Virus record (IMG/VR): IMGVR_UViG_3300034082_002445
Coordinates: 10,140-74,139 of that record
Origin: a virus
Lineage: Duplodnaviria; Heunggongvirae; Uroviricota; Caudoviricetes
Strand: one strand, 5' to 3'
Length of the DNA stretch: 64,000 nucleotides
Shown here: piece by piece, positions 407 to 57,772 of the stretch
How positions within the stretch are numbered: the stretch's first letter is position 1
How the letters are laid out: every line of letters begins with the position of its first letter
Notes under the pieces: generated by a model
What the model was told of the DNA's origin: nothing
Database searches by the model: none
The model's input: only the letters and a program-made list of their open reading frames with translations
Made by a program: the position numbers and the translations under genes

Positions 407-482
407 GGTGCGGTAGCTCAGATGGTAGAGCACAGGACTGAAAATCCTGGTGTCGGCGGTTCGATCCCGCCCCGCACCACCA
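407..482 (+). tRNA. tRNA-Phe(GAA), CCA encoded
   Basis: Acceptor ggtgcgg/ccgcacc, anticodon loop cTGAAaa, T-arm ggttcgatcc. Confidence 0.85.
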
Positions 483-514
483 GAATAAATGTTCTTTGAC
501 ATATTGGTAAATTT

Positions 515-584
515 GTATAAGTTGATCTTGGAGGTCAGTAGGTCTGCAAAATCTACGGAGTTGGTTCGATTCCAACCTTATACT
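515..584 (+). tRNA. tRNA-Cys(GCA)
   Basis: Acceptor gtataag/cttatac, anticodon loop ctGCAaa, T-arm ttggttcgattccaa. Confidence 0.75.
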
Positions 585-685
585 CAATGTCCTGTACCCT
601 TGAGAAACTCGTATCAAGTTAGTATGATTGACTGTGGATAAGCAGGACAGCACGAAATAAAGGGGTAAGAGAATAAGTGCACTAT

Positions 686-761
686 CGGGATGTGGACTAA
701 TTGGCTAAGTCGCCACTTTTGGGAAGTGGACATCATCCAGGTTCGAGTCCTGGTATCCCGA
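686..761 (+). tRNA. tRNA-Pro(TGG)
   Basis: Acceptor cgggatg/tatcccg, anticodon stem ccact/agtgg, loop ttTGGga, T-arm ccaggttcgagtcctgg. Confidence 0.8.
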
Positions 762-876
762 CAAAAATGTTCGTAACTTCTGAAAAATAGTTGCAAATAA
801 ATTTTTTATTGTCAAGTATTTCGTTTATATTTACTGTATAATTAAAAACAAAAGATCTTTGACATATTGGTAAAAT

Positions 877-970
877 AATCATAAGCCCATTGGTTGGGAG
901 CACCCCTCAAGGTTGAATCTTTGGATTCTTTATTGTAAAGCTGGAATTGGTTCGAATCCAATTATGATTA
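877..970 (+). ncRNA. tRNA-like element, 94 nt: perfect 7-bp acceptor stem, canonical T-arm and two short hairpins, but no canonical anticodon arm found
   Basis: aatcata/tatgatt acceptor, attgg-ttcgaat-ccaat T-arm; internal hairpins gaatc-tttg-gattc and cttta-ttg-taaag; exhaustive 5/7/5 search found no anticodon arm. Confidence 0.4.
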
Positions 971-975
971 CAAAC

Positions 976-1072
976 AGTCAGTCTTCAGAATGGTATCTGT
1001 ATGACTACATGATAAACCACAAGGCTCAGAAAGTCAATCTTGTGGCTGTAGGTTCGAATCCTACACTGACTA
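976..1072 (+). ncRNA. tRNA-like element, 97 nt: perfect acceptor stem and T-arm, 7-bp internal hairpin, no canonical anticodon arm
   Basis: agtcagt/actgact acceptor, gtagg-ttcgaat-cctac T-arm, ccacaag...cttgtgg hairpin. Confidence 0.4.
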
Positions 1073-1202
1073 CAAAGTCCAGGAGTAATTAACTTGGTAC
1101 CTGAGGTGTTCGAAAACCTCGATTGATTATGGTGTAAAGGTGCACAGCAGAACGTAATAGGGACGCAAGATTAAGGTTCAATTCCTTTTTAGTCAGCAAT
1201 TT

Positions 1203-1288
1203 GGATCGGTTGAGCAATTGGTTGGCTCAGCGGACTGTAAATCCGCCCTCTTACGAGCATGTAGGTTCGAGTCCTACCCGGTCCACCA
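1203..1288 (+). tRNA. tRNA-Tyr(GTA), type II, CCA encoded
   Basis: Acceptor ggatcgg/ccggtcc, anticodon gcgga-ctGTAaa-tccgc, long variable arm, T-arm gtaggttcgagtcctac. Confidence 0.85.
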
Positions 1289-1421
1289 AGAAAGTTGATT
1301 GGGGAATAGTATACTGTAACCTGATGATGGAGGTGGTATATAAGAGTTTGGAATCATCTTAGTAATGCCAATCGTAAAAACAGATGTCCACTGAACCATC
1401 TTCTGTTTTCTTTCTTTTTAC

Positions 1422-1492
1422 ACGTTTGTGGTGCAATGGTAGCATACCGGTCTCCAAAACCGTTGATGGGGGTTCGAATCCCTCCAAGCGTG
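1422..1492 (+). tRNA. tRNA-Trp(CCA)
   Basis: Acceptor acgtttg/caagcgt, anticodon loop ctCCAaa, T-arm gggggttcgaatccctc. Confidence 0.7.
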
Positions 1493-1497
1493 CAAAT

Positions 1498-1574
1498 GGT
1501 CCTTTAGCTCAGTTGGTTAGAGCGCCGCACTCATAATGCGAGGGTCACAGGTTCAAATCCTGTAGGGACCACCA
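1498..1574 (+). tRNA. tRNA-Met(CAT), elongator type, CCA encoded
   Basis: Acceptor ggtcctt/agggacc, loop ctCATaa, T-arm acaggttcaaatcctgt. Confidence 0.8.
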
Positions 1575-1578
1575 ACAT

Positions 1579-1650
1579 AGTTTATTAGTTCAATGGATAG
1601 AACACTTGACTACGGATCAAGAGATAAGGGTTCGAATCCTTTATAAACTA
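1579..1650 (+). tRNA. tRNA-Arg(ACG)
   Basis: Acceptor agtttat/ataaact, anticodon cttga-ctACGga-tcaag, T-arm aagggttcgaatccttt. Confidence 0.8.
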
Positions 1651-1656
1651 CTAAAT

Positions 1657-1730
1657 TGCGATATGGTAGAGTTGGTTTCTTACGATGCTCTCATAAGGCA
1701 TAGACACTGGTTCGAGTCCAGTTGTCGCAA
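1657..1730 (+). tRNA. second tRNA with CAT anticodon (Met, or Ile2 via lysidine)
   Basis: Acceptor tgcgata/tgtcgca, anticodon atgct-ctCATaa-ggcat, T-arm actggttcgagtccagt. Confidence 0.75.
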
Positions 1731-1739
1731 CAAAAATTT

Positions 1740-1813
1740 GATCTCGTAGCTCAGTTGGCTAGAGCACCTCACTTTTAATGAGGGAGTCAAGGGTTCGAGT
1801 CCCTTCGGGATCA
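1740..1813 (+). tRNA. tRNA-Lys(TTT)
   Basis: Acceptor gatctcg/cgggatc, anticodon cctca-ctTTTaa-tgagg, T-arm aagggttcgagtccctt. Confidence 0.85.
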
Positions 1814-1907
1814 CAAACTTCATTTATAATACTACGATCTCTCAGTTAAAAGCTGTCGTAGAGTAAAGTTATAGTCCGACATGGCTATTGGTTATAATGA
1901 AGTATTT

Positions 1908-1982
1908 GCTCTCTTAGCTCAGTTGGTTTAGAGCGCTGCCCTTACAAGGCAGATGTCGTAGGTTCGAATCCTACAGAGAGCA
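1908..1982 (+). tRNA. tRNA-Val(TAC)
   Basis: Acceptor gctctct/agagagc, anticodon ctgcc-ctTACaa-ggcag, T-arm gtaggttcgaatcctac. Confidence 0.85.
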
Positions 1983-2076
1983 CTCGCCGCACAAAGTGTG
2001 GAGGAACTGGCCAGAGATTTATTCTTGCAAACTCGATGCCGAAAGTCGAGCTGCCCATCTACGGGATGGGCTTTAT

Positions 2077-2150
2077 GGTGGATGTAGCTCAATCGGGAGA
2101 GCGTTGGTTTGTGGAACCAAAGGTAGTGGGATCGAAACCCATCATTCACC
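2077..2150 (+). tRNA. tRNA-His(GTG) with encoded G-1
   Basis: g + gtggatg/cattcac acceptor, anticodon ttggt-ttGTGga-accaa, T-arm gtgggatcgaaacccat, discriminator C. Confidence 0.8.
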
Positions 2151-2155
2151 CAAAT

Positions 2156-2242
2156 GGAAGATTGTCAGAGTGGTCTATCGTATCTCTTTGCTAAAGAGAT
2201 GGTCGCGAAAGCGGCCCAGAGGTTCGAATCCTTTATCTTCCG
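2156..2242 (+). tRNA. tRNA-Ser(GCT), type II
   Basis: Acceptor ggaagat/atcttcc, anticodon tctct-ttGCTaa-agaga, variable arm tggtcgcgaaagcggccc, T-arm agaggttcgaatccttt. Confidence 0.85.
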
Positions 2243-2338
2243 CTTAATTTTGATAAATAATAAATGAAGTTTTGAAACATACAAGCTTTGGTCTGTATAA
2301 CTAACATAACGTTCTTAAAATTATAAACGAATTAAAAT

Positions 2339-2424
2339 GCACTCGTGGTGAAATAGGTAGACACGAGGGACTTAAAATCCCTTGGCCAGTGATGGTCGTG
2401 CCGGTTCGATTCCGGCCGAGTGTA
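2339..2424 (+). tRNA. tRNA-Leu(TAA), type II
   Basis: Acceptor gcactcg/cgagtgt, anticodon aggga-ctTAAaa-tccct, long variable arm, T-arm gccggttcgattccggc. Confidence 0.8.
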
Positions 2425-2432
2425 CAAAAAGT

Positions 2433-3305
2433 ATGGCAAAAGCATTAGTTACAGGTGGAGCAGGTTTTATTGGATCTAATTTGGTCGACTTCTTATTAAA
2501 GGAAGGACACGAAGTTGAGGTTTGGGATGACTTATCCACTGGTAAACTTGAAAGACTTTCTAAAGAAGTAGAATTCAAAAGATTAGACTTAACTAGAGAT
2601 GTTCTACCAGATATTGAAGTTGATTGGGTATTTCACTTAGCAGCACCAGTATCTGTTCAAGAATCTTTGGAAAATCCATCTAAATATATGTATGGTTGTT
2701 TTGGTACAACTTATAGAATGTTAGATTGGTCTAGAAGAAATAGTGCTAAGAGCTTTACGTTAGCATCGACCGCTGCTGTGTATGGAGAAACAGAACAAAT
2801 ACCTGTTAAAGAAACAGATGAATTGAATCCTATTTCTCCATACGCTGAATGGAAATTAAAAGCTGAAGATTGTTTAAGCATGTACAAATCATATTTTACA
2901 TGTACAGCACTCAGATTCTTTAATGTCTATGGCAACGGTCAAAGTAGCACTGGAAGTTATGCTCCAGCTGTTGCAAGATTTTTAGATCAATATAGATCTG
3001 AACAACCAATAACAGTGACAGGTTCTGGCTTACAAACCAGAGATTATGTCAATGTTAATGATATATGTTCAGCACTATATGAATCTGGAAAAAGAATTGG
3101 ACCATTCTTAATAATGAATGTTGGATCAGGCAAAGAAATAGCTATCTTAGACATAGCAAAAGCCTTTGAAACAAATATAACATTCATTGATAAAAGAAAA
3201 GAACCAATGAGATCTGGAGCTGATATTACTTTAATTAAAAGTAAATTAGCATGGAGACCAAAGGAAAATATCTTTGAATGGATCAAACATAATTTAGATC
3301 TTTGA
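2433..3305 (+). CDS. NAD-dependent sugar epimerase/dehydratase (extended SDR; UDP-glucose 4-epimerase-like)
   Basis: Product MAKALVTGGAGFIGSNLV... with Rossmann GxxGxxG and catalytic YAEWK (YxxxK); the ORF-track start at 2382 lies inside tRNA-Leu, so the start is moved to ATG 2433. Confidence 0.8.
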   Translation: MAKALVTGGAGFIGSNLVDFLLKEGHEVEVWDDLSTGKLERLSKEVEFKRLDLTRDVLPDIEVDWVFHLAAPVSVQESLENPSKYMYGCFGTTYRMLDWSRRNSAKSFTLASTAAVYGETEQIPVKETDELNPISPYAEWKLKAEDCLSMYKSYFTCTALRFFNVYGNGQSSTGSYAPAVARFLDQYRSEQPITVTGSGLQTRDYVNVNDICSALYESGKRIGPFLIMNVGSGKEIAILDIAKAFETNITFIDKRKEPMRSGADITLIKSKLAWRPKENIFEWIKHNLDL

Positions 3306-3319
3306 CATATTGGTAAAAT
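3297..3319 (+). promoter_or_regulatory. Conserved motif gatcTTTGACATATTGGTAAAAT (copy 3 of 4); its TTGA overlaps the epimerase stop codon
   Basis: Near-identical copies at 491-511, 854-876, 3297-3319 and 3714-3727, all inside the tRNA array. Confidence 0.4.
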
Positions 3320-3390
3320 AAAGAAATTAGGATGCATACAGCAAATTTAAAAACTTTTATTGGAAAAAGCAAAACTGCATCCTGTTAAAT

Positions 3391-3464
3391 AGACACTTAG
3401 CTCAATTGGTTAGAGCATTCGCCTGATACGCGAAAGGTTACAAGTTCGATTCTTGTAGTGTCTA
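3391..3464 (+). tRNA. tRNA-Ile(GAT)
   Basis: Acceptor agacact/agtgtct, anticodon ttcgc-ctGATac-gcgaa, T-arm acaagttcgattcttgt. Confidence 0.85.
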
Positions 3465-3629
3465 CGCAGAAATCCAACACAACGACGACTTGCAAACAAA
3501 GTATTCTAGTGATAGAAGCAGTCATCCAAGTATGATTTGGAACGTGCACTGGTAGGCAACCAACCTATATTATGATACGAGCTAATACTTGTGGATTAAA
3601 GGTGACGATCAGGAAAGACTGATAATTTT

Positions 3630-3701
3630 GGTCTCATAGTTAATCGGCTATAATATTGCCCTGTCACGGCAAAGTGCCGGGTTCGATTCCCGGTGGGACC
3701 G
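3630..3701 (+). tRNA. tRNA-Asp(GTC)
   Basis: Acceptor ggtctca/tgggacc, anticodon ttgcc-ctGTCac-ggcaa, T-arm ccgggttcgattcccgg. Confidence 0.85.
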
Positions 3702-3749
3702 CAAACGATTGTTGTTCTTTGACATACTAAAAAATAAAAATTAAAAAAT

Positions 3750-4100
3750 ATGGATACAATATCATTTATTTTAGGAATGTCCTCGGTGGTGGTTATCGCA
3801 ATTGCGGTGGTTGCTGTCACAGGATTTTTTAAGGTCAGAAATGTTGAGAAACAATTCAATAACTACGAACAAAACTTTATGGTTGAGTTTGATAGTAGAA
3901 CAAAAGAAATTCACGATAATATAAATTATGTAAATAATGATTTAAATCGTAGAATTGATGAAGAAGGCAATGAATTAAATCGTAGAATTGATAACACAGA
4001 AAGAGAAATCTTTTCCCAATTAGATTCTCGATTAGATAAATTGGAAACTAAATTGACAGACACAATTAAAAACGGTTGTGATCCTGTTAAAAATAATTAA
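3750..4100 (+). CDS. Hypothetical protein with N-terminal transmembrane helix and coiled-coil repeats (NDLNRRIDEEGNELNRRID)
   Basis: ORF track; hydrophobic N-terminus followed by repeated heptads. Confidence 0.5.
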   Translation: MDTISFILGMSSVVVIAIAVVAVTGFFKVRNVEKQFNNYEQNFMVEFDSRTKEIHDNINYVNNDLNRRIDEEGNELNRRIDNTEREIFSQLDSRLDKLETKLTDTIKNGCDPVKNN

Positions 4101-4148
4101 CGAGTCATAAGACATAATAAATAAATCGTTAAAGACAATAATCGTTAT

Positions 4149-4222
4149 TACCCTTTCGTCTAATGGCAGGACAGCTGGTTTTGGTCCAGCTAATCGAGGT
4201 TCGAGTCCTTGAGGGGTAACCA
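4149..4222 (+). tRNA. tRNA-Gln(TTG), CCA encoded
   Basis: Acceptor taccctt/aggggta, anticodon gctgg-ttTTGgt-ccagc, T-arm cgaggttcgagtccttg. Confidence 0.75.
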
Positions 4223-4227
4223 AACAT

Positions 4228-4303
4228 AGCGGGTTGGTAGAAGTGGTATCTCGCGAGCCTCATAAGCTCGAGGTCGGGGGTTCGAATCCCTCACCCGCAA
4301 CCA
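4228..4303 (+). tRNA. third CAT tRNA, probably initiator tRNA-fMet (1:72 A-A mismatch), CCA encoded
   Basis: Acceptor agcgggt/acccgca with unpaired 1:72, anticodon cgagc-ctCATaa-gctcg, T-arm gggggttcgaatccctc. Confidence 0.65.
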
Positions 4304-4305
4304 AA

Positions 4306-4382
4306 TGAAGTGTAGCTCAGTGACATTAATGAGAGCAAGTCGTAAAAGACCGTGACGGTAGGTTGAATTCCTCCCACTTCAT
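4306..4382 (+). pseudogene. Degenerate tRNA-like sequence (acceptor and T-arm present, expanded D-loop, no pairable anticodon stem)
   Basis: tgaagtg/cacttca acceptor and gtagg-ttgaatt-cctcc T-arm with a mismatch; exhaustive search found no 5/7/5 anticodon arm. Confidence 0.35.
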
Positions 4383-4386
4383 ATTT

Positions 4387-4458
4387 GGTCCCATCGTCTA
4401 TCGGTTAGGACATCAGGTTTTCATCCTGAAAAGTCGGGTTCGACTCCCGGTGGGACTA
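4387..4458 (+). tRNA. tRNA-Glu(TTC)
   Basis: Acceptor ggtccca/tgggact, anticodon tcagg-ttTTCat-cctga, T-arm tcgggttcgactcccgg. Confidence 0.8.
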
Positions 4459-4605
4459 CTAAGAATAACTGTCACTCCATTCAATGTGATGTCGACAATC
4501 ACGAATGGATCAAAGTGTTCATCACCCTCAGCCTAGGCCTAGAGAAAACTCTAATGAAGCTGTTAAGATTGGAGCGAGACGGGTACTCCAAAGTTATTCT
4601 TAAAT
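4459..4605 (+). ncRNA. Structured about 147-nt spacer inside the tRNA array, closed by a long-range 9-bp stem (agaataact / agttattct)
   Basis: Internal hairpins ccattc..gtgat-gtcgaca-atcac..gaatgg and ggag-cgagacgggta-ctcc; no ORF; function unknown. Confidence 0.3.
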
Positions 4606-4679
4606 GGGGAATTAGCTCAGCTGGCTAGAGCGCCTGCCTTGCACGCAGGAGGTCATCGGTTCGACTCCGATATTCTCCA
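4606..4679 (+). tRNA. tRNA-Ala(TGC) with the G3:U70 identity pair
   Basis: Acceptor ggggaat/attctcc (G3-U70), anticodon cctgc-ctTGCac-gcagg, T-arm atcggttcgactccgat. Confidence 0.85.
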
Positions 4680-4887
4680 CTATTGATGATGAAATAGTAA
4701 TTAAACGAGTATCCAGAGGGAACACTGCCAGAATCCCACAACAGATAGGACGGAGAAAAGTTAATGAAAGACAATGGCGCATCGGGAACTCACACAGGCC
4801 GCAATCTGTAATCGAGTATGAAGAGTACATACCAATAGCTCTCTTTATCCCGCAATGGTAAGAAAAATGGTCGACTCATCAATAAAT

Positions 4888-4959
4888 TCCTCGGTAGCTC
4901 AGCGGTAGAGCACGCGACTGTTAATCGTGTGGTCGTAGGTTCAAATCCTACCCGGGGAG
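4888..4959 (+). tRNA. tRNA-Asn(GTT)
   Basis: Acceptor tcctcgg/ccgggga, anticodon cgcga-ctGTTaa-tcgtg, T-arm gtaggttcaaatcctac. Confidence 0.8.
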
Positions 4960-5069
4960 CAACTTAAAACCGATTCGGGTTCGACGTAAAATGGATCCTG
5001 CGCCTTGAAATATAGACAAAACGTCATTAAATATCCATCATTGAAGGTGTCATCGGTGACCTTCTAATT

Positions 5070-5145
5070 GCGAATATCGTATAATGGCTTATTACTCCAG
5101 CCTTCCAAGTTGGAGATCTCAGTTCGATTCTGAGTATTCGCTCCA
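5070..5145 (+). tRNA. tRNA-Gly(TCC), CCA encoded
   Basis: Acceptor gcgaata/tattcgc, anticodon ccagc-ctTCCaa-gttgg, T-arm ctcagttcgattctgag. Confidence 0.85.
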
Positions 5146-5169
5146 AATTTTACCAATATGTAAATAAAT

Positions 5170-5251
5170 GCCTGAGTGGTGGAATTGGTAGTCACGCCAG
5201 ATTTAGGATCTGGTGCCGAAAGGCGTGTCGGTTCGAGTCCGACCTTGGGTA
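5170..5251 (+). tRNA. tRNA-Leu(TAG), type II
   Basis: Acceptor gcctgag/cttgggt (G-U rich), anticodon ccaga-ttTAGga-tctgg, variable arm tgccgaaaggcgt, T-arm gtcggttcgagtccgac. Confidence 0.75.
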
Positions 5252-5277
5252 CAAAAATAATAGATATATAAGCCAAT

Positions 5278-10278: not shown

Positions 10279-10324
10279 AACGCATTAAAGGTTTCTTACA
10301 GCAATAAAACAGCATATAGAACCG

Positions 10325-10346
10325 GTACATTGTAGGTTCGAGTCCT
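10325..10346 (+). other. Orphan copy of the 3' T-arm of tRNA-Tyr, followed by an unrelated small hairpin
   Basis: cattgtaggttcgagtcctacc here versus catgtaggttcgagtcctacc at 1258-1278; no matching 5' half. Confidence 0.4.
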
Positions 10347-10487
10347 ACCTCTTATCGAAAGATAATTGTGGCGAAATTGGTAAACGCGCTGGTAAGCAAA
10401 AACAGAAACCTGACCTTATTGGGATACCTACAGCAACTACACAAAACTTCAATCTATAATGAACCAAAATGTGTATCCCGTTATTTT

Positions 10488-10560
10488 GCCTCCTTAGCTC
10501 AGCTGGTAGAGCAACTGATTTGTAATCAGTAGGTCGCTGGTTCGATCCCGGCAGGAGGCT
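10488..10560 (+). tRNA. tRNA-Thr(TGT)
   Basis: Acceptor gcctcct/aggaggc, anticodon actga-ttTGTaa-tcagt, T-arm gctggttcgatcccggc. Confidence 0.85.
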
Positions 10561-10598
10561 CACCTAACTTTTTTACCTTTTACATAGATATATAGTTT

Positions 10599-11288
10599 AT
10601 GGAAAAGTTAAAAAAGAAACAAGCCACTAGAAGAAAATATCATTACATTTATAAAACAATCTGTATCATTACAAATAAATTTTATATTGGAATGCACTCA
10701 ACTGACAACTTAGAAGATGGTTATATTGGTTCAGGTAAAAGACTTTGGTACTCAATAAACAAATACGGCAAAGAAAATCATACTTGTGAGATATTAGAGT
10801 TCTTAGAATCAAGAGAACTTTTAAAAGAAAAAGAAAAACAATTAGTTAATCAGGATCTTTTAAATGATTCAATGTGTATGAATCTTGCAATTGGTGGAGA
10901 AGGAGGCCATGGCTCTAAATTTTTAACTAAAGAACAATTAGCAAAAGGCGGTAAAAATTCTATGGCTATTATAAAATTACTTAGAGAAACTGATCCAGAA
11001 TATGCTAAAATAAATAGTAAGTCTATATCAAAGTCATATTATAAGGCGATTGAAGAGGGAAGAAGAATACCAAAAGCTTGGGGTAATTGGACTGGTAGGA
11101 AACACAAATTAGAAACTATTGAAAAATTAAAAGGTCATAGTCATCAAGTTGGTTTAAATAATTCCCAATATGGAAAATGTTGGATAACAAATGGAATTGA
11201 AAGCCAAAAGATTTACAAAGGCGATTCTATTCCAGAAGGCTGGAAATTAGGTCGTAAACAAATTTTGAAACAAAATAAAAACAATTAA
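10599..11288 (+). CDS. GIY-YIG homing endonuclease (I-TevI / Seg-like) with C-terminal NUMOD-like DNA-binding repeats
   Basis: YHYIYKTICIITNKFYIGMHSTDNLEDGYIGSGKRL (GIY-YIG core), followed by basic helix repeats; lies directly 3' of tRNA-Thr. Confidence 0.8.
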   Translation: MEKLKKKQATRRKYHYIYKTICIITNKFYIGMHSTDNLEDGYIGSGKRLWYSINKYGKENHTCEILEFLESRELLKEKEKQLVNQDLLNDSMCMNLAIGGEGGHGSKFLTKEQLAKGGKNSMAIIKLLRETDPEYAKINSKSISKSYYKAIEEGRRIPKAWGNWTGRKHKLETIEKLKGHSHQVGLNNSQYGKCWITNGIESQKIYKGDSIPEGWKLGRKQILKQNKNN

Positions 11289-11298
11289 TATAACTATT

Positions 11299-11466
11299 AT
11301 GAACAAAGAACAATTTTTAGGATTTTTACGTCACACTTTAACTGTATTAGGTGGTGTATTAGTAGCAAGAGGTTATATGGATGATTCAATGTTAGCTGAA
11401 GGTGCAGGTATTATTACTGCTCTTGTAGGTTTTATTTGGTCAGCAGCTTCTAAGAAAACAGTATAA
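11299..11466 (+). CDS. Small two-transmembrane protein, holin-like (55 aa); below the ORF-track cutoff
   Basis: MNKEQFLGFLRHTLTVLGGVLVARGYMDDSMLAEGAGIITALVGFIWSAASKKTV: two hydrophobic helices and a charged C-terminus. Confidence 0.4.
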   Translation: MNKEQFLGFLRHTLTVLGGVLVARGYMDDSMLAEGAGIITALVGFIWSAASKKTV

Positions 11467-11547
11467 TTATATGGTGTCTCGGTACGCTCTGACGAAAGTT
11501 AACGACGAGGTCTCGGTTGGCAGACGGCCTCTGATCCAACCCACATT

Positions 11548-11623
11548 GCGAAAGTAGCTCAGCTGGTAGAGCTCCAGTTTACCAAACTGGAGGTCGCGGG
11601 TTCGAATCCCGTCTTTCGCTCCA
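11548..11623 (+). tRNA. tRNA with anticodon loop TTACCAA; anticodon ACC (Gly) if the loop is the canonical 7 nt; CCA encoded
   Basis: Acceptor gcgaaag/ctttcgc, anticodon stem ccagt/actgg, T-arm gcgggttcgaatcccgt; backbone nearly identical to tRNA-Thr at 10488. Confidence 0.6.
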
Positions 11624-11641: not shown

Positions 11642-11971
11642 ATGACTGAAAACGAAATTTTCAAATTCGGTGAGATTCAATATCTAACAGGACGCTTAGA
11701 TGAACTTTACTACAAAGCATTACCAAATGTCTTAGATCTACATGGTAACAGAGGTATTGATGCCAGAATCGGTAAATACTTAGATAAGTTAAAATCAGTT
11801 GATGAGACAGCTTATTATCTTTACATGGTCGAGCATACTAATAGATCTCATGCCAGAACCAAAAGTCAAAAAGTAATTAAGAATATTTTAACTGAAGTTT
11901 TGGATCACGTGTCAGATGAGCCCTTAAAAGAAAAGATTCAAAGACATTTACATAAATACAGAAATGTATAA
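11642..11971 (+). CDS. hypothetical protein
   Basis: ORF track. Confidence 0.45.
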   Translation: MTENEIFKFGEIQYLTGRLDELYYKALPNVLDLHGNRGIDARIGKYLDKLKSVDETAYYLYMVEHTNRSHARTKSQKVIKNILTEVLDHVSDEPLKEKIQRHLHKYRNV

Positions 11972-12092: not shown

Positions 12093-12686
12093 ATGAAGAA
12101 ACTATTATTGATAGCACTGCTATTAATTACAAATTTAACATACGCACAACACAGAAGAGACTCAGTTAGAATTAAGACTGATATTTTTGAAGTAGTTTAT
12201 TCAGAAGTTTTAGAACAACCAAGATGGATTCAATATTATGTTGAATGTCCAGATGGAACAGCCCCAAGATCTGGCTTAGAATTTAGATCTTATCCCAAAG
12301 TTAAAACATCTGATGATTCAGATTACGTAAATAATGTTTACGACAAAGGTCACATGGCACCAGCTGCCGATTTTGCATGTGATAGGTTTACAATAGCCAA
12401 AACATTTACTTATATCAATTGTGCTCTGCAACACCAAGATTTAAACAGAGGTGTTTGGAAAAACTTAGAAGTTTTCGAAAGAAATTTAGCTTTACGTGGC
12501 ATAAAGGTAAAAGTTACTATTAAAGTTGATTTTACCAATGCAAAGAAATTATCCACAGGAGCCACAATCCCAACAGGCTTTTGGAAAATGATAGAAGCAG
12601 ACGGAAAGGTTTATGAATTTTACTTTCTAAACGTAACTCCTACAAAATCAGATTTCATGTTATATCAAACTAATTGCTGTAAATAA
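12093..12686 (+). CDS. Secreted DNA/RNA non-specific endonuclease (EndoG / Serratia nuclease family)
   Basis: Signal peptide MKKLLLIALLLITNLTYA; catalytic DKGHMAPAADF (DRGH motif). Confidence 0.75.
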   Translation: MKKLLLIALLLITNLTYAQHRRDSVRIKTDIFEVVYSEVLEQPRWIQYYVECPDGTAPRSGLEFRSYPKVKTSDDSDYVNNVYDKGHMAPAADFACDRFTIAKTFTYINCALQHQDLNRGVWKNLEVFERNLALRGIKVKVTIKVDFTNAKKLSTGATIPTGFWKMIEADGKVYEFYFLNVTPTKSDFMLYQTNCCK

Positions 12687-20657: not shown

Positions 20658-20757
20658 TTGTTCGTAACTTTTTAAGATCCGGGTGAATTTATTTTCATCC
20701 GGATTTTTTTATGTCAAATGTTTTGTGTATATTTACAGTATAATTAAAAGAAAGAAA
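20658..20757 (+). promoter_or_regulatory. Intergenic cassette: TTGTTCGTAACTTTTT, terminator hairpin, TGTCAAA-N9-TATATTTAC-N2-TATAATTAAAAG
   Basis: Hairpin atccgggtgaatttattttcatccggat + T7; compensatory base changes among copies at 24799, 27962 and 43386. Confidence 0.65.
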
Positions 20758-21501
20758 ATGCCACAGATATTTAAAGTAGGAGGATGTGTAAGGGACAAGT
20801 TTCTTGGATTAGAATCCAAAGATATAGATTTTACATTTGTATTGGATGACTTATCCGGATCAGTCCAGGAAGGTTTCGCAACAATGGAAGATCATCTTAA
20901 ACAAGAAGGTTTTGAAGTGTTCTTGAGCACTCCAGACTGTTTTACTATTAGGGCTAAGTTTCCTAAAGGGCACCAATTTAGTGGCCTAGTGGCTGACTTT
21001 GTAATGGCTCGTAAAGAAGTTGGTTACATGGAAGGAACTCGTCAGCCTATTCTAGAACTTGGAACTCTGGCCGATGATTTACTTCGTCGAGATTTTACAG
21101 TCAATGCTTTAACTGAAGACATTGATGGAAACATTATTGATCTTTTTGGTGGTCAAGAGGACCTAAAACAAGGTTTGCTTAGAACACCGTTGCCTGCAAA
21201 AATGACTATGATGGATGATCCATTGAGAATCATGAGGGCTTTGAGGTTTAAAATCACTAAAGGATTTAGCATCCATGATGATATTTGGATGGCAATGATG
21301 CAACCTGAAATCTTAGAAAAATTAAGAACGACAGTTAGTGCTGAAAGAATTCGCGATGAGGTTTTCAAAATGATGAAGCATGACACTGTTGCAACTATCA
21401 AATTGCTACATTTAGTCGATGCTCAATCAATCCCAGGCTTTTTAGACTTGGTCTTTGATCGAGGCATGTGGTTAAAACCAACTTTTGAAAAGAAACAATA
21501 A
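20758..21501 (+). CDS. tRNA nucleotidyltransferase (CCA-adding enzyme, Pol-beta head domain)
   Basis: MPQIFKVGGCVRDKFLG...RRDFTVNAL...DDPLRIMRALRF; the ORF-track start at 20683 lies in the promoter cassette, so the start is moved to ATG 20758. Confidence 0.8.
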   Translation: MPQIFKVGGCVRDKFLGLESKDIDFTFVLDDLSGSVQEGFATMEDHLKQEGFEVFLSTPDCFTIRAKFPKGHQFSGLVADFVMARKEVGYMEGTRQPILELGTLADDLLRRDFTVNALTEDIDGNIIDLFGGQEDLKQGLLRTPLPAKMTMMDDPLRIMRALRFKITKGFSIHDDIWMAMMQPEILEKLRTTVSAERIRDEVFKMMKHDTVATIKLLHLVDAQSIPGFLDLVFDRGMWLKPTFEKKQ

Positions 21502-22090: not shown

Positions 22091-23221
22091 ATGGAAAGAA
22101 AACTAGCATCTGTACAGAGAATCGCTAGCATTAGACCAATTGAGGGTGCTGATGCTATCGAAGTGGCAAGAATCAACAACTGGGATGTTGTTGTTAAAAA
22201 GAACGAGTTTAAAGAAGGAGAACTTTGTGTTTACTTTGAAATTGATTCATTCTTACCAATCAGAGAAGAGTTTGAATTCTTACGTAAGAGCTCATTTAAA
22301 AAGATGGGTGACCAAGAAGGATTTCGCTTAAAGACTATTAGACTAAGAGGCCAAGTTTCTCAAGGTTTAGTAGTTCCTATTACTATCTTAAATGGTGATT
22401 ACATTATTGGAATCTCTCAACAACCACACGGAGATCAATTACAATTAGGACCTTATGATGATGCTTTAGTAATCGAAGAAGGTGCAGATGTAACTGAATT
22501 GTTAGGCGTAGAGAAATATGAACCACCAATTCCAGCTGAATTGTCTGGTAAAGTCAAAGGTTACTTTCCATCATTTATTCATAAAACTGATGAAGAACGA
22601 GTTCAAAACTTGGTTAAAGAATATGCACAATGGAAAGAACAAGATCTGGACTTCTATGTGACTGAGAAATTAGATGGATCTTCAGCAACTTATTACTATA
22701 ATAATGGTGTCTTTGGTGTATGTTCAAGAAACTTAGAACTAGCAGAACCTGAAGAATTTGTAGCAGGAATGGTAATGTGTGATGACGGTATCGAAAGACC
22801 ACGTCAACAAAATTCATTTTGGAAAGTAGCTCAAGAATTAGGACTCAAAGAAAAGTTAGAAGCTTATGGTCGAAATATCTCTATTCAAGGCGAATTGATT
22901 GGTGAAGGGATCCAAGGAAATCCTTACAAAATCAAGGGACAAACTGTTAGATTCTTTAATGTATTTGATATTGATACACAAGAGTACTATGGTTTACCAA
23001 TGTTCTTAGCAACTATGCAACATACTTTAAAATTGGAAACTGTACCAGTATTGGAATTTCCATGTAAGTTACCAGATACTATCGATGAATTATTGGCTTA
23101 TGCTGATGCAAAATCAGTCCTAAATCCTAATTTCGATAGAGAAGGCGTAGTTATTAGAAGTTTGGATCGTAAGATTAGTTTTAAAGCTATTTCGAATAAG
23201 TTTTTAATGAATGAAAAGTAA
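22091..23221 (+). CDS. ATP-dependent RNA ligase with N-terminal OB-fold tRNA-binding (EMAP/Myf-like) domain
   Basis: N-terminus SVQRIASIRPIEGADAIEVARINNWDVVVKK..GELCVYFEIDSFLP is tRNA-binding-domain-like; nucleotidyltransferase motif I TEKLDGSS (KxDG). Confidence 0.6.
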   Translation: MERKLASVQRIASIRPIEGADAIEVARINNWDVVVKKNEFKEGELCVYFEIDSFLPIREEFEFLRKSSFKKMGDQEGFRLKTIRLRGQVSQGLVVPITILNGDYIIGISQQPHGDQLQLGPYDDALVIEEGADVTELLGVEKYEPPIPAELSGKVKGYFPSFIHKTDEERVQNLVKEYAQWKEQDLDFYVTEKLDGSSATYYYNNGVFGVCSRNLELAEPEEFVAGMVMCDDGIERPRQQNSFWKVAQELGLKEKLEAYGRNISIQGELIGEGIQGNPYKIKGQTVRFFNVFDIDTQEYYGLPMFLATMQHTLKLETVPVLEFPCKLPDTIDELLAYADAKSVLNPNFDREGVVIRSLDRKISFKAISNKFLMNEK

Positions 23222-35068: not shown

Positions 35069-36181
35069 ATGAACAAAGTAACATTAGATAAGTATGTAGA
35101 AGCAGGTTGGTTGATTCGTCAGTCACACCCTACTTTGCCATTGTCAATCTACAATTACTCTCAATCTACACAGTATGAGAAGCATTGGGATGATATTACT
35201 TTGTCTTGTCGTGGAGTTATTACTGATGATGAAAATGGCAAGATTATCGTTAAGCCATTTCCAAAGTTCTTTAACTATGAAGAATTGCCAGCAACTATGA
35301 TTCCATGGTCAAACTCTGACTATGTTTATGTTCAAGAAAAAATGGATGGATCCTTGGGTATTTTATTTAACTATAAGAATGAGTGGATCTTATCAACTCG
35401 TGGATCTTTTACATCAGATCAGGCCATTCGAGGCTTAGAGATCTTAAAGGCCAAATACATCTTAGATGCTTTTGAACCTTCTGTTGCCTATTTATGTGAG
35501 ATTATTTACCCAGAAAATAGAATTGTGGTTGATTATGGCAAAGAAAAGATTACATTTTTAGGTGCAGCCATTAATCGATCTTGGAATTGGAAAGAAGGTG
35601 GAGACGATGAATTACATTGGACTACAGCACAGGCCTATTTTAAAATGTCAGGTATTAAAAAGTCTGATATTGTTAAAACTACTCAAGTCTTTGATTTGGG
35701 TCCAGAATTATACTCAACTTTAAAAGCTTTGAACAAAGCCAACGAAGAAGGTTACGTCTTACGTTTCTTTCCTTCTAACTTAAGGGTCAAAATCAAATTC
35801 GAGGATTACTGTACTTTGCACCGAATCTTAACTAATGTTTCTTCATACGATATTTGGGAAAACTTAATGAAATTTGGTAAATTGCCAGAGCAAATGCTTA
35901 ATGATGTACCAGATGAATTTTATGATTGGGTTCATGCAACTCAAGCCAAAATCACGGCAGATTTTAAACAAGTAATGCACTATCATTTGGCAGTTTGTTC
36001 TTCGATCTTAAGAGATGGTATGATGACTCAAAAAGAATTTGCTGAACAAGTTTTAGCTTTGAGTGATGTTAATCATGGTATCATTTTTGGCATTGCAAAT
36101 GGCAAAGATGTGAGCGAAAAGGCCTGGAAAATGGTTAAGCCAGAATATAGTAAGCCTTTTTCAAATGTCGTTGATATATAA
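35069..36181 (+). CDS. T4 RnlA-like RNA ligase 1 (tRNA-repair ligase)
   Basis: N-terminal SIYNYSQ..CRGVI..KFFNYEE and motif I QEKMDGSLGILF parallel T4 Rnl1 SYNYAS..CRGIMF..KFFNLNE..KEDGSLVSTY. Confidence 0.75.
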   Translation: MNKVTLDKYVEAGWLIRQSHPTLPLSIYNYSQSTQYEKHWDDITLSCRGVITDDENGKIIVKPFPKFFNYEELPATMIPWSNSDYVYVQEKMDGSLGILFNYKNEWILSTRGSFTSDQAIRGLEILKAKYILDAFEPSVAYLCEIIYPENRIVVDYGKEKITFLGAAINRSWNWKEGGDDELHWTTAQAYFKMSGIKKSDIVKTTQVFDLGPELYSTLKALNKANEEGYVLRFFPSNLRVKIKFEDYCTLHRILTNVSSYDIWENLMKFGKLPEQMLNDVPDEFYDWVHATQAKITADFKQVMHYHLAVCSSILRDGMMTQKEFAEQVLALSDVNHGIIFGIANGKDVSEKAWKMVKPEYSKPFSNVVDI

Positions 36182-54378: not shown

Positions 54379-54933
54379 ATGACTACAGATAAATTAACAC
54401 TTACATTAATCAATGATTGTTTGTATAGAATCGAACAAAATGTTGGTCATATTACTGAAATAAAGGTTTCAGTTGAAAGGGATGGAGTTAGAAGAAATTT
54501 TAACTTTGCAGATCTTAAAGAACTTAAAGCCAGAATAGATCTGACAAAACCCAACATTAGAATTGATAGTGCATGTAATTGTTATTTGGTTGATGAAGAA
54601 TTTTATCAATTGGTTAATTTTATAGTTGATGCAAGAGATCCTTATAATGGTGGTAAAACTAATAGAATCTTTATTGATACTGCAATTGACTTTTCTAGTG
54701 GAAAAGCATTGGCATTTAATGCCTCACATATTAAAGATCTAAACGATCTTAGAACACAATTAAATAAGATTTATTCATGGTATAAAACTGCAACTTGTTT
54801 GGCTTACGTTGAAGATATTGAAAATTATATTCAAGATCCATGTTATGTAGAAGCAGCAAAAAATCTTAGTTACAAAAATTTAACAAAAGAATATAAAAAA
54901 TACGTATTAAAAAATGACAACACCATCAGATAA
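54379..54933 (+). CDS. hypothetical protein
   Basis: ORF track. Confidence 0.45.
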   Translation: MTTDKLTLTLINDCLYRIEQNVGHITEIKVSVERDGVRRNFNFADLKELKARIDLTKPNIRIDSACNCYLVDEEFYQLVNFIVDARDPYNGGKTNRIFIDTAIDFSSGKALAFNASHIKDLNDLRTQLNKIYSWYKTATCLAYVEDIENYIQDPCYVEAAKNLSYKNLTKEYKKYVLKNDNTIR

Positions 54934-57772
54934 AGGCAGAAGTGATATTCGTCCAGGACAACATCCATTTTCTTCAACTGGAAGAGTAGAAGGGGGCGAT
55001 GAAACTTATGGAGTATATGGCACAAAAGGCTATTACAAATCATTTCAACCTCAATTTAAAGGAAGACCGCTTAGACACACTGAGATGGACTTTAACATTG
55101 ACTTAATTGGTCAAGTAATTAAAGGTTATAGAATCGTTGGTAGTTCAGAAGAAGTACCAGACGAAATTGATTTATCAACTGATCTTGATAAAGTTCTGAT
55201 GTTTGCTGAAAGAGACATGATAGATGTTGAAGGCAATACAGTTTATGAAGAAGATGGAACTACACCTAAAGTGGAATATGTTTGGGAATTATCTAGTTTA
55301 GGTGCTATTTCAGGTACTAAAGGAGATAAAGGTGCAACTGGAACTGGTGGTGCTCAAGGTAGTGCTGGAACTAATGGTGCTCAAGGTGCCAAGGGTGCTC
55401 AAGGATCAACTGGTTTAACTGGTGTTAAAGGTGAAGTTGGTGCTCAAGGATTACAAGGAGGTGCAGGTGCTGCAGCTCAAGCGGCTTTAGTTTATGCATT
55501 CACACACGATACTTTTTCTCCAGCTGCGGTACCAAGTTTACCAGGTTCTGCTGCATTTTATGAACAAAATGGATCATTAGTACTTTCATTTAATGATAAT
55601 GCTGGAGTTGATAATGAAAATAAGTTTTTAGGTCTATTAGCAACAGGTAGTTTTGATATTACGACAGTTTCTCAAACTGGAGGTGCAGGAGTTTATAATC
55701 AATACAGCTTTTCTGAAGTTTATGTAGATTTCTCTGCTTTTTCAGAAAGTAGTTGTGTTGTTGTTTACGCATCAAATATTAATACAGTTGGTGTTGGTAA
55801 TCCTGATGTAAATGCAACAGGTAACATTACTTTTAATGGAAATTTACCAACAGATTTACCTATATTTTCAAATGTTTTTATAGACAAATGGAATGTAGGA
55901 GGTGGTGCTGGTGATGGTGCTCAAGGTGCAACTGGTCCAAGCGGAGCAGATGGTGCTCAAGGTGGTGCTGGAACAAATGGTGCTCAAGGTTCTGCTGGAA
56001 CTAATGGTGCTCAAGGTAGTGCTGGAACAGATGGTGCTCAAGGTGCTGCAGGTACAGACGGTGCTAAAGGTGCTGATGGTATAACAGGTGCTCAGGGTGC
56101 AATTGGAACAGGAACTCCAGGAGCAGATGGTGCTCAAGGTATAAAAGGTACTGCTGGAACAGATGGTGCTAAAGGTGCTACAGGAACAGATGGTGCTCAA
56201 GGTGCTGATGGAGCAGATGGAGCTCAAGGTGCAAAAGGCGACTCAGGTGCTCAAGGTGACAAAGGTGACTTAGGTACAACAGGAGCTCAAGGTGCAAAAG
56301 GCGATATTGGAACAGATGGTGCTCAAGGTTCAACTGGAACTGGAATTCCAGGATTAGAAGGCGCTCAAGGTAGTGCTGGATCTGATGGTGCCAAAGGTGA
56401 TGCTGGTACAAACGGTGCTCAAGGTGCTGATGGAACTCTAGGATTTGACGGTGCAAAAGGCGACACGGGTGCTCAAGGTGCCAAAGGTGACTTAGGTACA
56501 ACAGGAGCTCAAGGTGCAAAAGGTGATATTGGAATAGATGGTGCTCAAGGTGCAAAAGGTTCTTCAGGAATTGATGGTGCTCAAGGTGCAACTGGAACAG
56601 GAACTCCTGGAACAGATGGTGCTCAAGGCGCAAAAGGTGACTTAGGTACTACGGGAGCTCAAGGTGCTAAAGGTGATATTGGAACAAATGGTGCTCAAGG
56701 TGCAAAAGGCGATATTGGAATAGATGGTGCTCAAGGTGCAAAAGGTGACTTAGGTAATACAGGTGCTCAAGGAGCTAAAGGTGATTTAGGTGCAACAGGT
56801 GCTCAAGGAGCTAAAGGTGATTTAGGTGCAACAGGAGCTCAAGGAGCAAAAGGTGACTTAGGTGCAACAGGTGCTCAAGGTGCAAAAGGTGATATTGGAA
56901 TAGATGGTGCTCAAGGTGCAACTGGAACTGGAATTCCAGGATCAGATGGTGCTCAAGGCGCCAAGGGTGAATCTGGAACAGATGGTGCTCAAGGTGATAA
57001 AGGTGAAGTTGGAATCGGAACCCCTGGAACAGATGGTGCTCAAGGTGCTAAAGGTGAAGTTGGAATTGGAACTCCCGGATCAGACGGTGCTCAAGGTGCA
57101 AAAGGTGACGCTGGAACAAATGGTGCTCAAGGTGCAAAAGGCGATGATGGAATAGATGGTGCTCAAGGTGCAACTGGAGCTGGAACTGCAGGTTTATCTG
57201 GAGTTGATGGATCACAAGGTGCATCAGGAACAGATGGTGCTCAAGGTGCATCAGGAACACCAGGAACAGCAGGAGCTCAAGGTAGTAGTGGAACACCAGG
57301 AACTCCTGGAACTGATGGTGCTCAAGGTGATGCAGGTACAGCAGGTGCTCAAGGTGCTGCGGGTATAGATGGCGGTGGTGGTGGATCACCAGACGTTGGA
57401 ATAAATGTAGTTCCTGCTTCTAAATCTCTAACAACATGGTATCCTGCTAATAATTGGCATGATGCTTATGTAACTATTCCACACAGTATGGATGGTATGC
57501 GATTGGTAAGTATATTTGCCTCATACGGTGATTCTTGGCCAGAAGGTTCAGCAGATCAAGAATGGACCTTAGAATTAAGAGATCTAACAAATACTTGGGT
57601 ACATCGTGAAATATGGCAACACACAGACGGTAATAGATACCATGCGCACACTACTCTTGTAAATACGTCGTATGACTTAACAACAGGTTACACGCTTCAT
57701 GTTATACATAAAAACGGTGGTGGATTTACTCCAGCAGCACAAGGTTACTCAGTAACAGCAACATTTCAATAA
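54914..57772 (+). CDS. Collagen-like triple-helix repeat protein (tail-fibre-like) with a globular C-terminal domain
   Basis: About 480 residues of uninterrupted G-X-Y (GAQGAKGDLGTTGAQGAKGDIG...), N-terminal anchor domain, C-terminal roughly 130-aa non-collagen domain. Confidence 0.85.
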   Translation: MTTPSDKGRSDIRPGQHPFSSTGRVEGGDETYGVYGTKGYYKSFQPQFKGRPLRHTEMDFNIDLIGQVIKGYRIVGSSEEVPDEIDLSTDLDKVLMFAERDMIDVEGNTVYEEDGTTPKVEYVWELSSLGAISGTKGDKGATGTGGAQGSAGTNGAQGAKGAQGSTGLTGVKGEVGAQGLQGGAGAAAQAALVYAFTHDTFSPAAVPSLPGSAAFYEQNGSLVLSFNDNAGVDNENKFLGLLATGSFDITTVSQTGGAGVYNQYSFSEVYVDFSAFSESSCVVVYASNINTVGVGNPDVNATGNITFNGNLPTDLPIFSNVFIDKWNVGGGAGDGAQGATGPSGADGAQGGAGTNGAQGSAGTNGAQGSAGTDGAQGAAGTDGAKGADGITGAQGAIGTGTPGADGAQGIKGTAGTDGAKGATGTDGAQGADGADGAQGAKGDSGAQGDKGDLGTTGAQGAKGDIGTDGAQGSTGTGIPGLEGAQGSAGSDGAKGDAGTNGAQGADGTLGFDGAKGDTGAQGAKGDLGTTGAQGAKGDIGIDGAQGAKGSSGIDGAQGATGTGTPGTDGAQGAKGDLGTTGAQGAKGDIGTNGAQGAKGDIGIDGAQGAKGDLGNTGAQGAKGDLGATGAQGAKGDLGATGAQGAKGDLGATGAQGAKGDIGIDGAQGATGTGIPGSDGAQGAKGESGTDGAQGDKGEVGIGTPGTDGAQGAKGEVGIGTPGSDGAQGAKGDAGTNGAQGAKGDDGIDGAQGATGAGTAGLSGVDGSQGASGTDGAQGASGTPGTAGAQGSSGTPGTPGTDGAQGDAGTAGAQGAAGIDGGGGGSPDVGINVVPASKSLTTWYPANNWHDAYVTIPHSMDGMRLVSIFASYGDSWPEGSADQEWTLELRDLTNTWVHREIWQHTDGNRYHAHTTLVNTSYDLTTGYTLHVIHKNGGGFTPAAQGYSVTATFQ
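55300..57380 (+). repeat. Tandem degenerate repeats (9-nt GGTGCTCAAGGTGCAAAAGGYGAY... units) encoding collagen Gly-X-Y
   Basis: Highly periodic sequence; creates artefactual ORFs on both strands. Confidence 0.85.

Follow-up and report, generated by a model that had tools for sequence, protein, structure and literature searches.

A conserved phage tRNA-Gly with the anticodon ACC, related to phage tRNA-Gly(GCC) and predicted to read GGU

The DNA examined here is a 64-kb window from a virus of the Caudoviricetes (IMG/VR record IMGVR_UViG_3300034082_002445, positions 10,140 to 74,139). It encodes a tRNA-Gly with the anticodon ACC, which places an adenosine at position 34. We propose that this gene, which descends from a phage tRNA-Gly(GCC), probably supplies the infected cell with a functional elongator tRNA that would accept glycine and decode GGU through a Watson-Crick pair. 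The anticodon of tRNA-Gly(ACC) is listed among eight that are missing from all life (PMC8007984), and that paper states, citing PMC6409571, that the anticodons absent from bacteria are absent from phage tRNAs too. No earlier report of a phage tRNA-Gly(ACC) was found in the open-access literature, and prior mention elsewhere is possible. An initial sequence-only reading of this DNA had remarked that A34 is very unusual outside tRNA-Arg(ACG), in agreement with PMC8007984 and PMC4928997. Why A34, and glycine A34 especially, is avoided is treated as an open question (PMC4928997, PMC6720975, PMC11066159). The gene and its parts are as follows (L numbers, here and below, designate contigs and loci):

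11548..11623, + strand: tRNA-Gly(ACC) gene (ARAGORN, Rfam, fold, identical copies in L017, L527 and L529)
11574..11590, + strand: anticodon arm CCAGU-UUACCAA-ACUGG, with U32, A37 and A38 and the closing pairs G30-C40 and U31-A39 (manual parse)
11581..11583, + strand: anticodon ACC, with A34 at 11581 (sequence, ARAGORN); G34 in the orthologs L530 and L532
11620..11623, + strand: discriminator U73 (T at 11620) and encoded CCA (sequence)

When the whole window was scanned, ARAGORN placed a tRNA-Gly with the anticodon acc at exactly 11548-11623 on the + strand. The gene reaches 71.2 bits with the Rfam model RF00005, whose gathering score is 29 (E=5.7e-15, model positions 1-71, the full model), and the RNA folds at -32.2 kcal/mol (z=-3.9), a stability equalled by none of 200 shuffles. 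Manual parsing of the 76 nt, which include the encoded CCA, gives a canonical cloverleaf with the acceptor stem GCGAAAG/CUUUCGC, U8 and A9 present, a D arm GCUC-AGCUGGUA-GAGC with G18G19, a variable loop AGGUC, and a T arm GCGGG-UUCGAAU-CCCGU. The 7-nt anticodon loop and the residues U33, U8, A14, G18G19, G53, T54 T55 C56, A58 and C61 are all found, by the manual parse and by ARAGORN, and the manual parse showed no second loop register or pseudogene sign. The well-formed tRNA with the loop UUACCAA and the anticodon ACC that had been proposed from the letters is thus confirmed by ARAGORN, Rfam and the fold; the check by a tRNA-detection program that had been suggested returned the same gene in the same register, as Gly(acc) and with no pseudogene sign. 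A sequencing error is excluded, because the same 76 nt occur unchanged in four independent contigs (L017, L527, L529 and the partial L528). A scan for promoters and terminators around the gene gave nothing beyond shuffle expectation. The 80-nt leader on its 5' side (11467-11547) is kept in the relatives that carry ACC and, in part, in L530, which carries GCC (GGCAGAAGGCCTCTGAT...CCCA); it holds a hairpin, GGUUGG...CCAACC, and the leader fold is not significant (z=+0.5).

The descent of the gene was approached through its genomic slot, which is marked by three neighbours:

10488..10561, + strand: tRNA-Thr(UGU), a syntenic neighbour and not the parent of the ACC gene (ARAGORN, Rfam)
11299..11466, + strand: holin-like open reading frame (ORF) directly upstream of the tRNA gene (Pfam Phage_holin_10, E=1e-16)
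11642..11971, + strand: 109-aa ORF directly downstream of the tRNA gene, used as the synteny anchor

Orthologs were sought in metagenome contigs with the 109-aa ORF as bait, without reference to the tRNA, and ARAGORN was then applied. In all four bait contigs (L527, L529, L530 and L532) a Gly gene lies between tRNA-Thr and the homolog of the 109-aa ORF. The relatives, with their flanks compared to the window, are:

L017: flanks 93-98% identical; ACC, identical 76 nt; first found by the exact-arm scan described below
L527, L529: flanks 85-94% identical; ACC, identical 76 nt
L532: flanks about 83% identical; tRNA-Gly(GCC) at the syntenic slot
L530: flanks 74-87% identical; tRNA-Gly(GCC) at the syntenic slot

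Not one of the 76 nt changes among the ACC contigs, whose flanks differ by 2-15%, and the partial contig L528 also carries the unchanged sequence. An unchanged gene beside diverged flanks suggests purifying selection on tRNA-Gly(ACC).

Alignment of the window gene with the GCC orthologs L530 and L532 shows identical D and T arms. The differences are the acceptor pair 5-68 (A-U for G-C), N26, N44, G34A and the anticodon stem, in which three of the five pairs are changed on both sides (CCAGU/ACUGG against CGACC/GGUCG, with U-A in place of C-G at 31-39); the substitutions therefore cluster in the anticodon arm. Because the D and T arms of the GCC ortholog are identical, we take the ACC gene to have come from a GCC gene by G34A and remodelling of three anticodon-stem pairs. 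Judged from these alignments, the ACC gene replaced, or evolved from, the GCC gene in this phage lineage. Its likeness to tRNA-Gly(GCC), represented by E. coli tRNA-Gly3 and the two orthologs, extends to G1:C72, C2:G71, G3:C70, U73, the loop U32 U33 N CC A37 A38 and the GGY codon family. A second search, with the endonuclease gene at 12093-12686 as bait, yielded a single syntenic locus among the 42 viral loci listed, L039, which is near-identical to the window and is the same contig as L017; the other 41 had no nearby Gly tRNA. Relative to the window (11466/11467), L017 has 132 nt inserted after the holin gene and before the tRNA leader (L017 4752-4883); within this insert lies a weak tRNA-like match of 31 bits (L017 4804-4875), and L017 lacks the 229-aa ORF of the window (10599-11288).

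The identity set of bacterial GlyRS consists of G1:C72, C2:G71, G3:C70, U73, C35 and C36. All six elements can be read from the phage gene, and the window tRNA thus carries the complete set. Its three acceptor pairs are invariant in 42 of 42 ACC genes from the wider class described below, for most of which the 3' CGCU had been part of the search pattern. The anticodon elements recognized by ThrRS, G35 and U36, are absent from the tRNA, which has C35 and C36 instead. The recommended inspection of the discriminator and the 3:70 pair accordingly comes out in favour of GlyRS, with U73 and G3:C70 fitting and the ThrRS anticodon elements lacking.

The window gene is a member of a wider class. The scans of sequence collections reported here give lower bounds, and only ratios within one scan are meaningful. 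A scan of IMG/VR with the exact 17-nt anticodon arm gave at least 34 loci, 23 of 34 with an ARAGORN tRNA-Gly(acc); these 23, among the matches listed, comprise the close relative L017, 21 members of a 74-nt family in pelagimyophage-like contigs, and one 84-nt type-II tRNA. With a general viral pattern that fixed only UACCAA, the T loop and CGCU, 106 of the 113 matches listed hold a tRNA-Gly(acc), representing 59 unique sequences. The first 80 loci, together with the window gene and two pelagimyophage variants, fall into 30 clusters at 85% identity. Across 42 diverse ACC genes, 15 of the 22 stem pairs show compensatory changes by RNAalifold; the genes evolve as working tRNAs. The nearest bodies are phage GCC genes in 30 cases and UCC genes in nine; two kinds of ancestor indicate several independent origins. 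When only the 5' body was specified (GCGAAAGUAGCUCAG..GGUAGAGC, anticodon free), the 109 matches listed divided into 85 GCC, 18 ACC and 6 UCC genes, and on one body a stepwise series is preserved, from GCC to G34A only (L140), to the addition of C31U (L157), to remodelled 30-40 and 31-39 pairs (L096). ACC may make up roughly 2-3% of phage GGY-type tRNA-Gly overall, and 17% within the backbone family of the window among the matches listed. The 17-nt arm is shared by three unrelated bodies; arm transfer was considered and set aside, as it is not separable from convergence or chance in a scan that preselected the exact 17-mer.

Outside viral collections, the same ACC pattern in 185,579 bacterial and archaeal genomes gave mostly chance matches, 24 of the 120 listed being tRNAs. 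Eleven of those 24 sit in arrays of 5-22 tRNAs that are phage-derived by appearance. There are also isolated tRNA-Gly(ACC) calls in high-GC bacterial genomes or metagenome-assembled genomes (L219, L248, L237 and L276), of which L219 and L248 have a thrU-tyrU-glyT-thrT-like context and the loop CUACCAA; these look like U34-to-A changes in glyT-type genes, as real alleles or assembly errors. No close match of 27 ACC representatives was found in cultured phages, the sole phage that INPHARED gave being Erwinia phage Asesino, which carries a Gly(ccc) gene. ACC genes thus appear essentially absent from cultured phages apart from HTVC008M.

In HTVC008M, a cultured Pelagibacter phage (KC465899), an unannotated 74-nt tRNA-Gly(ACC) lies at 91140-91213, directly upstream of the gene for phage ribosomal protein S21, and scores 49.5 bits with Rfam. 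ARAGORN finds it to be the single tRNA of the complete genome, and a tRNAscan-SE-based survey of pelagimyophages lists HTVC008M with zero tRNAs (PMC7029224). The T loop in this family (HTVC008M = L038 3001-3074; about 20 IMG/VR loci, L002-L034) is AGCGUUA, UGCGUUA or UGCGAUU, which is non-canonical with respect to UUCRANY. HTVC008M also carries, in the ARAGORN scan of its complete genome, a permuted transfer-messenger RNA (tmRNA) at 145120-145461 with the tag ANFNEYALAA, and phage tmRNA genes adjoin homologs of the window endonuclease in L051, L056, L060 and L062.

Further phage A34 tRNAs were seen. The 84-nt type-II tRNA with anticodon ACC, found at L001 8338-8421(+) and L533 7043-7126(-), has a long variable arm, the acceptor GGAGAUG/CAUCUCC and A73, and is without the Gly identity set. 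Its two copies share 85% identity, with changes in the anticodon stem that are compensatory, and Rfam gives the L001 copy 53.5 bits. Phage tRNA-Leu comes nearest to the body (D loop AAUUGGCAGAC), with a best identity of 0.73. The gene may encode a GGU-reading tRNA of Leu or Ser type, which would make it a true missense or recoding tRNA. Another is tRNA-Ser(ACU), present as four distinct sequences in the viral contigs L112/L189, L131/L187, L364 and L431; it belongs to the split AGN box, and its anticodon is likewise listed as universally missing. Thr(AGU), Val(AAC), Leu(AAG) and Ser(AGA) also occur in phage arrays (L107, L185, L345, L371, L392, L114, L176, L419, L374 and L413), and A34 accounts for about 3% of the tRNAs in the phage arrays examined.

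The class has correlates in base composition, codon usage and tRNA content. Locus GC content has a median of 0.34 for ACC and 0.40 for GCC (Mann-Whitney p=3e-18). The GGT share of all Gly codons is 0.58 at ACC loci and 0.39 at GCC loci (p=1e-11), and GGT/(GGT+GGC) is 0.88 and 0.67, respectively (p=1e-14). HTVC008M has GGT at 72% of its Gly codons, and at 23 of 29 in the major capsid gene. Of 27 arrays that hold five or more tRNAs, 19 combine acc with tcc, seven have acc as their only Gly tRNA, and one has acc+gcc+tcc; because acc and gcc co-occur in just 1 of 27, we conclude that ACC replaces GCC. The anticodon stem differs as well. A weak 31-39 pair (U-A, A-U or U.G) is present in 39 of 59 unique ACC genes against 6 of 100 GCC genes (Fisher p=3.6e-16), C31-G39 being found in 82 of the 100 GCC genes. 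U32 occurs in 57 of the 59 and G30-C40 in 32 of them; U32, A37 and A38 are common to ACC and GCC genes. The window gene fits this signature, with a Gly body, the loop UUACCAA, and U31-A39 preceded by G30-C40, and the window itself fits the class pattern in having UCC and ACC without GCC and in being AT-rich and GGU-rich.

The features of the window that bear on decoding are the following:

407..5252, + strand: array of 22 tRNA genes (ARAGORN)
5070..5145, + strand: tRNA-Gly(UCC), the partner isoacceptor for GGA and GGG (ARAGORN)
54914..57772, + strand: collagen-like tail fibre gene, a heavy GGU consumer (140 GGT of 231 Gly codons), which raises the local GC to 0.47

The window, part of a large AT-rich phage, has a GC content of ~0.34. 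ARAGORN finds 24 tRNA genes in it, and between them the array, Thr and Gly(ACC) serve all 20 amino acids. In each four-codon family the window supplies a U34 tRNA and no other, apart from Gly (UCC and ACC) and Arg (ACG); A34 is confined to Arg(ACG) and Gly(ACC), and ARAGORN detects no tRNA-Gly(GCC) in the 64 kb. No close cultured relative of the phage emerged from a near-identity search of INPHARED, in which the 2 kb around the gene matched tRNA-Thr only. Upstream of tRNA-Thr, at 10315-10400, there are tRNA-like fragments, one T-arm-like (GTAGGTTCGAGTCCTAC) and one D-arm-like (GGCGAAATTGGTAAACGC), in which neither ARAGORN nor Rfam calls a tRNA; a type-II tRNA that has decayed may have left them behind.

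In the mechanism that we propose, G34 of a phage tRNA-Gly(GCC) would have changed to A, and the anticodon stem would have been remodelled thereafter or in a coupled step. The host GlyRS would charge the tRNA in the infected cell. A34 would then form a Watson-Crick pair with U3 of GGU, the commonest Gly codon of the phage (GGT 54%, GGA 29%, GGC 15% and GGG 2% over 80 ORFs of the window; GGT is 78% of GGY). GGA and GGG would be left to the phage tRNA-Gly(UCC), and the rare GGC would fall to the host's GCC tRNA or be read weakly through A:C. Unlike tRNA-Gly(GCC), a reader of both GGU and GGC, the phage tRNA is expected to prefer GGU strongly over GGC; the earlier suggestion that it should read Gly GGU is supported as an expectation from the A34CC anticodon. 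We infer that the phage can afford a specialist for U-ending codons because its tRNA merely supplements the host pool. Cells would need one tRNA for both GGU and GGC and so could not afford such a specialist. A more general proposal, which we advance tentatively and at somewhat less than even confidence, is that phages of AT-rich hosts repeatedly evolved tRNA-Gly with an unmodified A34, from GCC- and UCC-type ancestors, and other A34 tRNAs such as tRNA-Ser(ACU), as specialists for U-ending codons with a co-adapted anticodon stem.

Some observations weigh against this interpretation. The choice of ACC over GCC is separated about equally well by GC (area under the curve 0.85) and by GGT share (0.84), so the link to GGU is inseparable from AT-richness, and mutation pressure could contribute. 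ACC is in the minority overall, with about 2 of the first 80 matches being ACC in a scan that allowed R at position 34. In a eukaryotic tRNA-mimic assay an A:U pair was not better than a G:U wobble, with 55% against 65% activity and slightly more frameshifting (PMC6720975). A deaminase could lie elsewhere in the phage genome, beyond the 64-kb window. Simple codon matching does not explain the remodelled anticodon stem, for which tuning of the loop dynamics for A34, enzyme recognition or escape, and arm exchange are possibilities; molecular dynamics suggested that A34 destabilises the glycine anticodon loop (PMC4928997).

Whether A34 stays unmodified bears directly on the codons that are read. 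We lean, by a modest margin over even chances, toward an unmodified A34, because of the behaviour of TadA on ACC, the loop differences, the lack of a TadA-like ORF and the presence of tRNA-Ser(ACU) in arrays. Of the 15 A34 anticodons on which E. coli TadA was tried, only three were modified, and ACC yielded no inosine signal (PMC11066159). The loop does not match the TadA-substrate context U33-A34-C35-G36 of tRNA-Arg(ACG), having C36 for G36 and U32 for C32. Neither the 64-kb window nor 1.2 Mb of sequence around 140 loci of the ACC scans yielded a TadA-like or CDA-fold ORF when searched with a CDA zinc-motif regular expression and with phmmer and E. coli TadA. The alternative, in which the host TadA or a phage deaminase encoded outside the window converts A34 to inosine, would give an ICC anticodon that reads GGU, GGC and GGA, a bacterial-virus analogue of tRNA-Arg(ICG). 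It draws on the U33-A34-C35 shared with tRNA-Arg(ACG), on the fact that these two are the only A34 tRNAs in the window, on the widened range of some bacterial TadA enzymes, which extends to tRNA-Leu(AAG) according to PMC8007984 and PMC13249217, and on the observation that human ADAT deaminates tRNA-Gly(ACC) in part in vitro (PMC4928997). If ICC read GGA, however, the near-constant company of tRNA-Gly(UCC) would be less needed, and in the tRNA-Ser(ACU) that phage arrays also carry, inosine would misread AGA. We therefore regard modification to inosine as unlikely, though worth serious attention; the idea of a Gly reader formed by A-to-I conversion, raised in the sequence-only reading, stands as possible and is not favoured, with E. 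coli TadA inactive on ACC and no deaminase found in the window or near ACC genes.

Improbable, in our judgement, is the explanation that A34 and the remodelled stem represent escape from a host defence that targets tRNA, such as an anticodon nuclease or modifier acting on tRNA-Gly(GCC), or from the phage's own weapon against host tRNA, the change of decoding being secondary. The clustering of ACC-to-GCC substitutions in the anticodon arm would suit it, as would the repair and maintenance genes of the window:

20683..21501, + strand: tRNA nucleotidyltransferase (CCA-adding enzyme), tRNA-maintenance context (phrog_24229, E=3e-60)
22091..23221, + strand: RNA ligase, tRNA-repair context (PHA02142 OB fold and RNA_ligase)
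35069..36181, + strand: T4 Rnl1-type RNA ligase, tRNA-repair context

With the CCA-adding enzyme and the two RNA ligases, the kit includes the genes at 36791-38221 and 38632-39345, which encode a DUF2828/DUF7788 protein (phrog_850 'RNA-binding protein') and a metallophosphoesterase; a DNA ligase is also encoded in the window. Phage T5 tRNAs are reported to evade anticodon nucleases via anticodon-loop changes. We know of no nuclease specific for tRNA-Gly(GCC), and none was identified in this analysis. Moreover, the loop is unchanged apart from position 34 (U32, U33, A37 and A38 are retained), the class follows GGU-rich usage and low GC, which escape does not predict, and HTVC008M has Gly(ACC) as its single tRNA with no repair kit evident in its annotation.

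Neutral or slightly deleterious drift, in which AT pressure turns G34 to A in a barely needed auxiliary tRNA that is then tolerated or decays, would account for the lower GC of ACC contigs, for the single-step G34A variant on an unchanged GCC body (L140), and for the low share of ACC among phage GGY-type tRNA-Gly (~2-3%). We consider it very doubtful. Drift does not sit with a 100% conservation of the ACC genes beside flanks that have diverged by as much as 15%, with compensatory changes that keep the cloverleaf intact in a diverse set of 42 ACC genes, or with a distinct, non-random anticodon-stem signature. Nor does it sit with an ACC gene that takes the place of GCC instead of accompanying it and that is the only tRNA kept by pelagimyophages.

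Hardly credible is the last alternative, a duplicated tRNA-Thr with a remoulded anticodon that is charged with Thr or ambiguously for deliberate Gly/Thr mistranslation: the D arm and part of the T arm do resemble tRNA-Thr(UGU) at 10488, but the D and T arms match the syntenic GCC orthologs exactly, the acceptor 5' strand is GCGAAAG against GCCUCCU in the window tRNA-Thr, and the GlyRS elements are complete while G35 and U36 are missing. The near-identical backbone once noted amounts to 70% identity, the same as to tRNA-Ala, compared with 81-84% to common phage tRNA-Gly(GCC) genes, and in a sensitive BLAST search of 50,697 phage records the full-length matches were annotated tRNA-Gly only. Duplication and remoulding of tRNA-Thr, and with it a Thr-to-Gly identity switch, is hence not supported and was rejected; the nearest relatives are phage tRNA-Gly(GCC) genes, the syntenic orthologs included. 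The suspicion of an engineered decoder also lapses, as nothing suggests engineering in a gene that belongs to a diverse natural class.

We have compared the GGU decoder proposed here with known A34 tRNAs and phage arrays. Like the tRNA-Arg(ACG)/TadA system, of which an Arg(ACG) copy is present in the window, it has a gene-encoded A34, U33-A34-C35 and a four-codon box; unlike tRNA-Arg(ACG), it has C and not G at position 36. Natural tRNAs with an A34 that is, or may be, left unmodified are known in Mycoplasma (tRNA-Thr(AGU)) and in Oenococcus and Leuconostoc (PMC11066159, PMC8007984). With these the phage tRNA shares an encoded and maybe unmodified A34, U-ending codons and an AT-rich genome; in contrast, they are cellular housekeeping tRNAs of Thr, Leu or Ser boxes, whereas the phage tRNA is viral, belongs to glycine and supplements a host pool. 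Its anticodon is that of the engineered tRNA-Gly(ACC) (Boren et al. 1993; Saint-Leger et al. 2016; M. jannaschii tRNA(ACC), 2024). According to these sources, glycylation of ACC tRNAs is possible, elongation works, GGU is preferred, and they are poor deaminase substrates. The 1993 construct, as cited in PMC11066159, was chargeable and read GGU strongly, GGC weakly, and some GGA/GGG. Human GlyRS charges an engineered human tRNA-Gly(ACC) (PMC4928997), and engineered tRNA-Gly(ACC) is glycylated and active (PMC4928997). Those are laboratory point mutants on unadapted bodies, whereas the phage genes are natural and conserved and have a distinct anticodon-stem signature. As in the arrays of T4, T5 and mycobacteriophages, the gene is an auxiliary tRNA of a large phage that plausibly offsets a difference in codon usage between phage and host. 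Unlike those published arrays, it breaks the rule, stated in PMC8007984 (citing PMC6409571), that phages miss the same anticodons as bacteria.

The conserved natural tRNA-Gly(ACC) of this window belongs to a phage class that is diverse and recurrent and has an anticodon-stem signature of its own. The phage ACC genes provide natural sequences that have overcome the difficulty, whatever it is, of having A34 in the anticodon loop of a glycine tRNA. An annotation gap is also evident, in that the HTVC008M gene is unannotated and was missed by a tRNAscan-SE-based survey. If these tRNAs are indeed specialists with an unmodified A34, the statement that A34CC is universally excluded from biology would be overturned, and the cultured pair of HTVC008M and Pelagibacter ubique HTCC1062 would offer a natural system for asking why cells avoid unmodified A34. 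The idea that follows is a testable one, namely that codon-specialist tRNAs may be affordable for viruses and not for cells.

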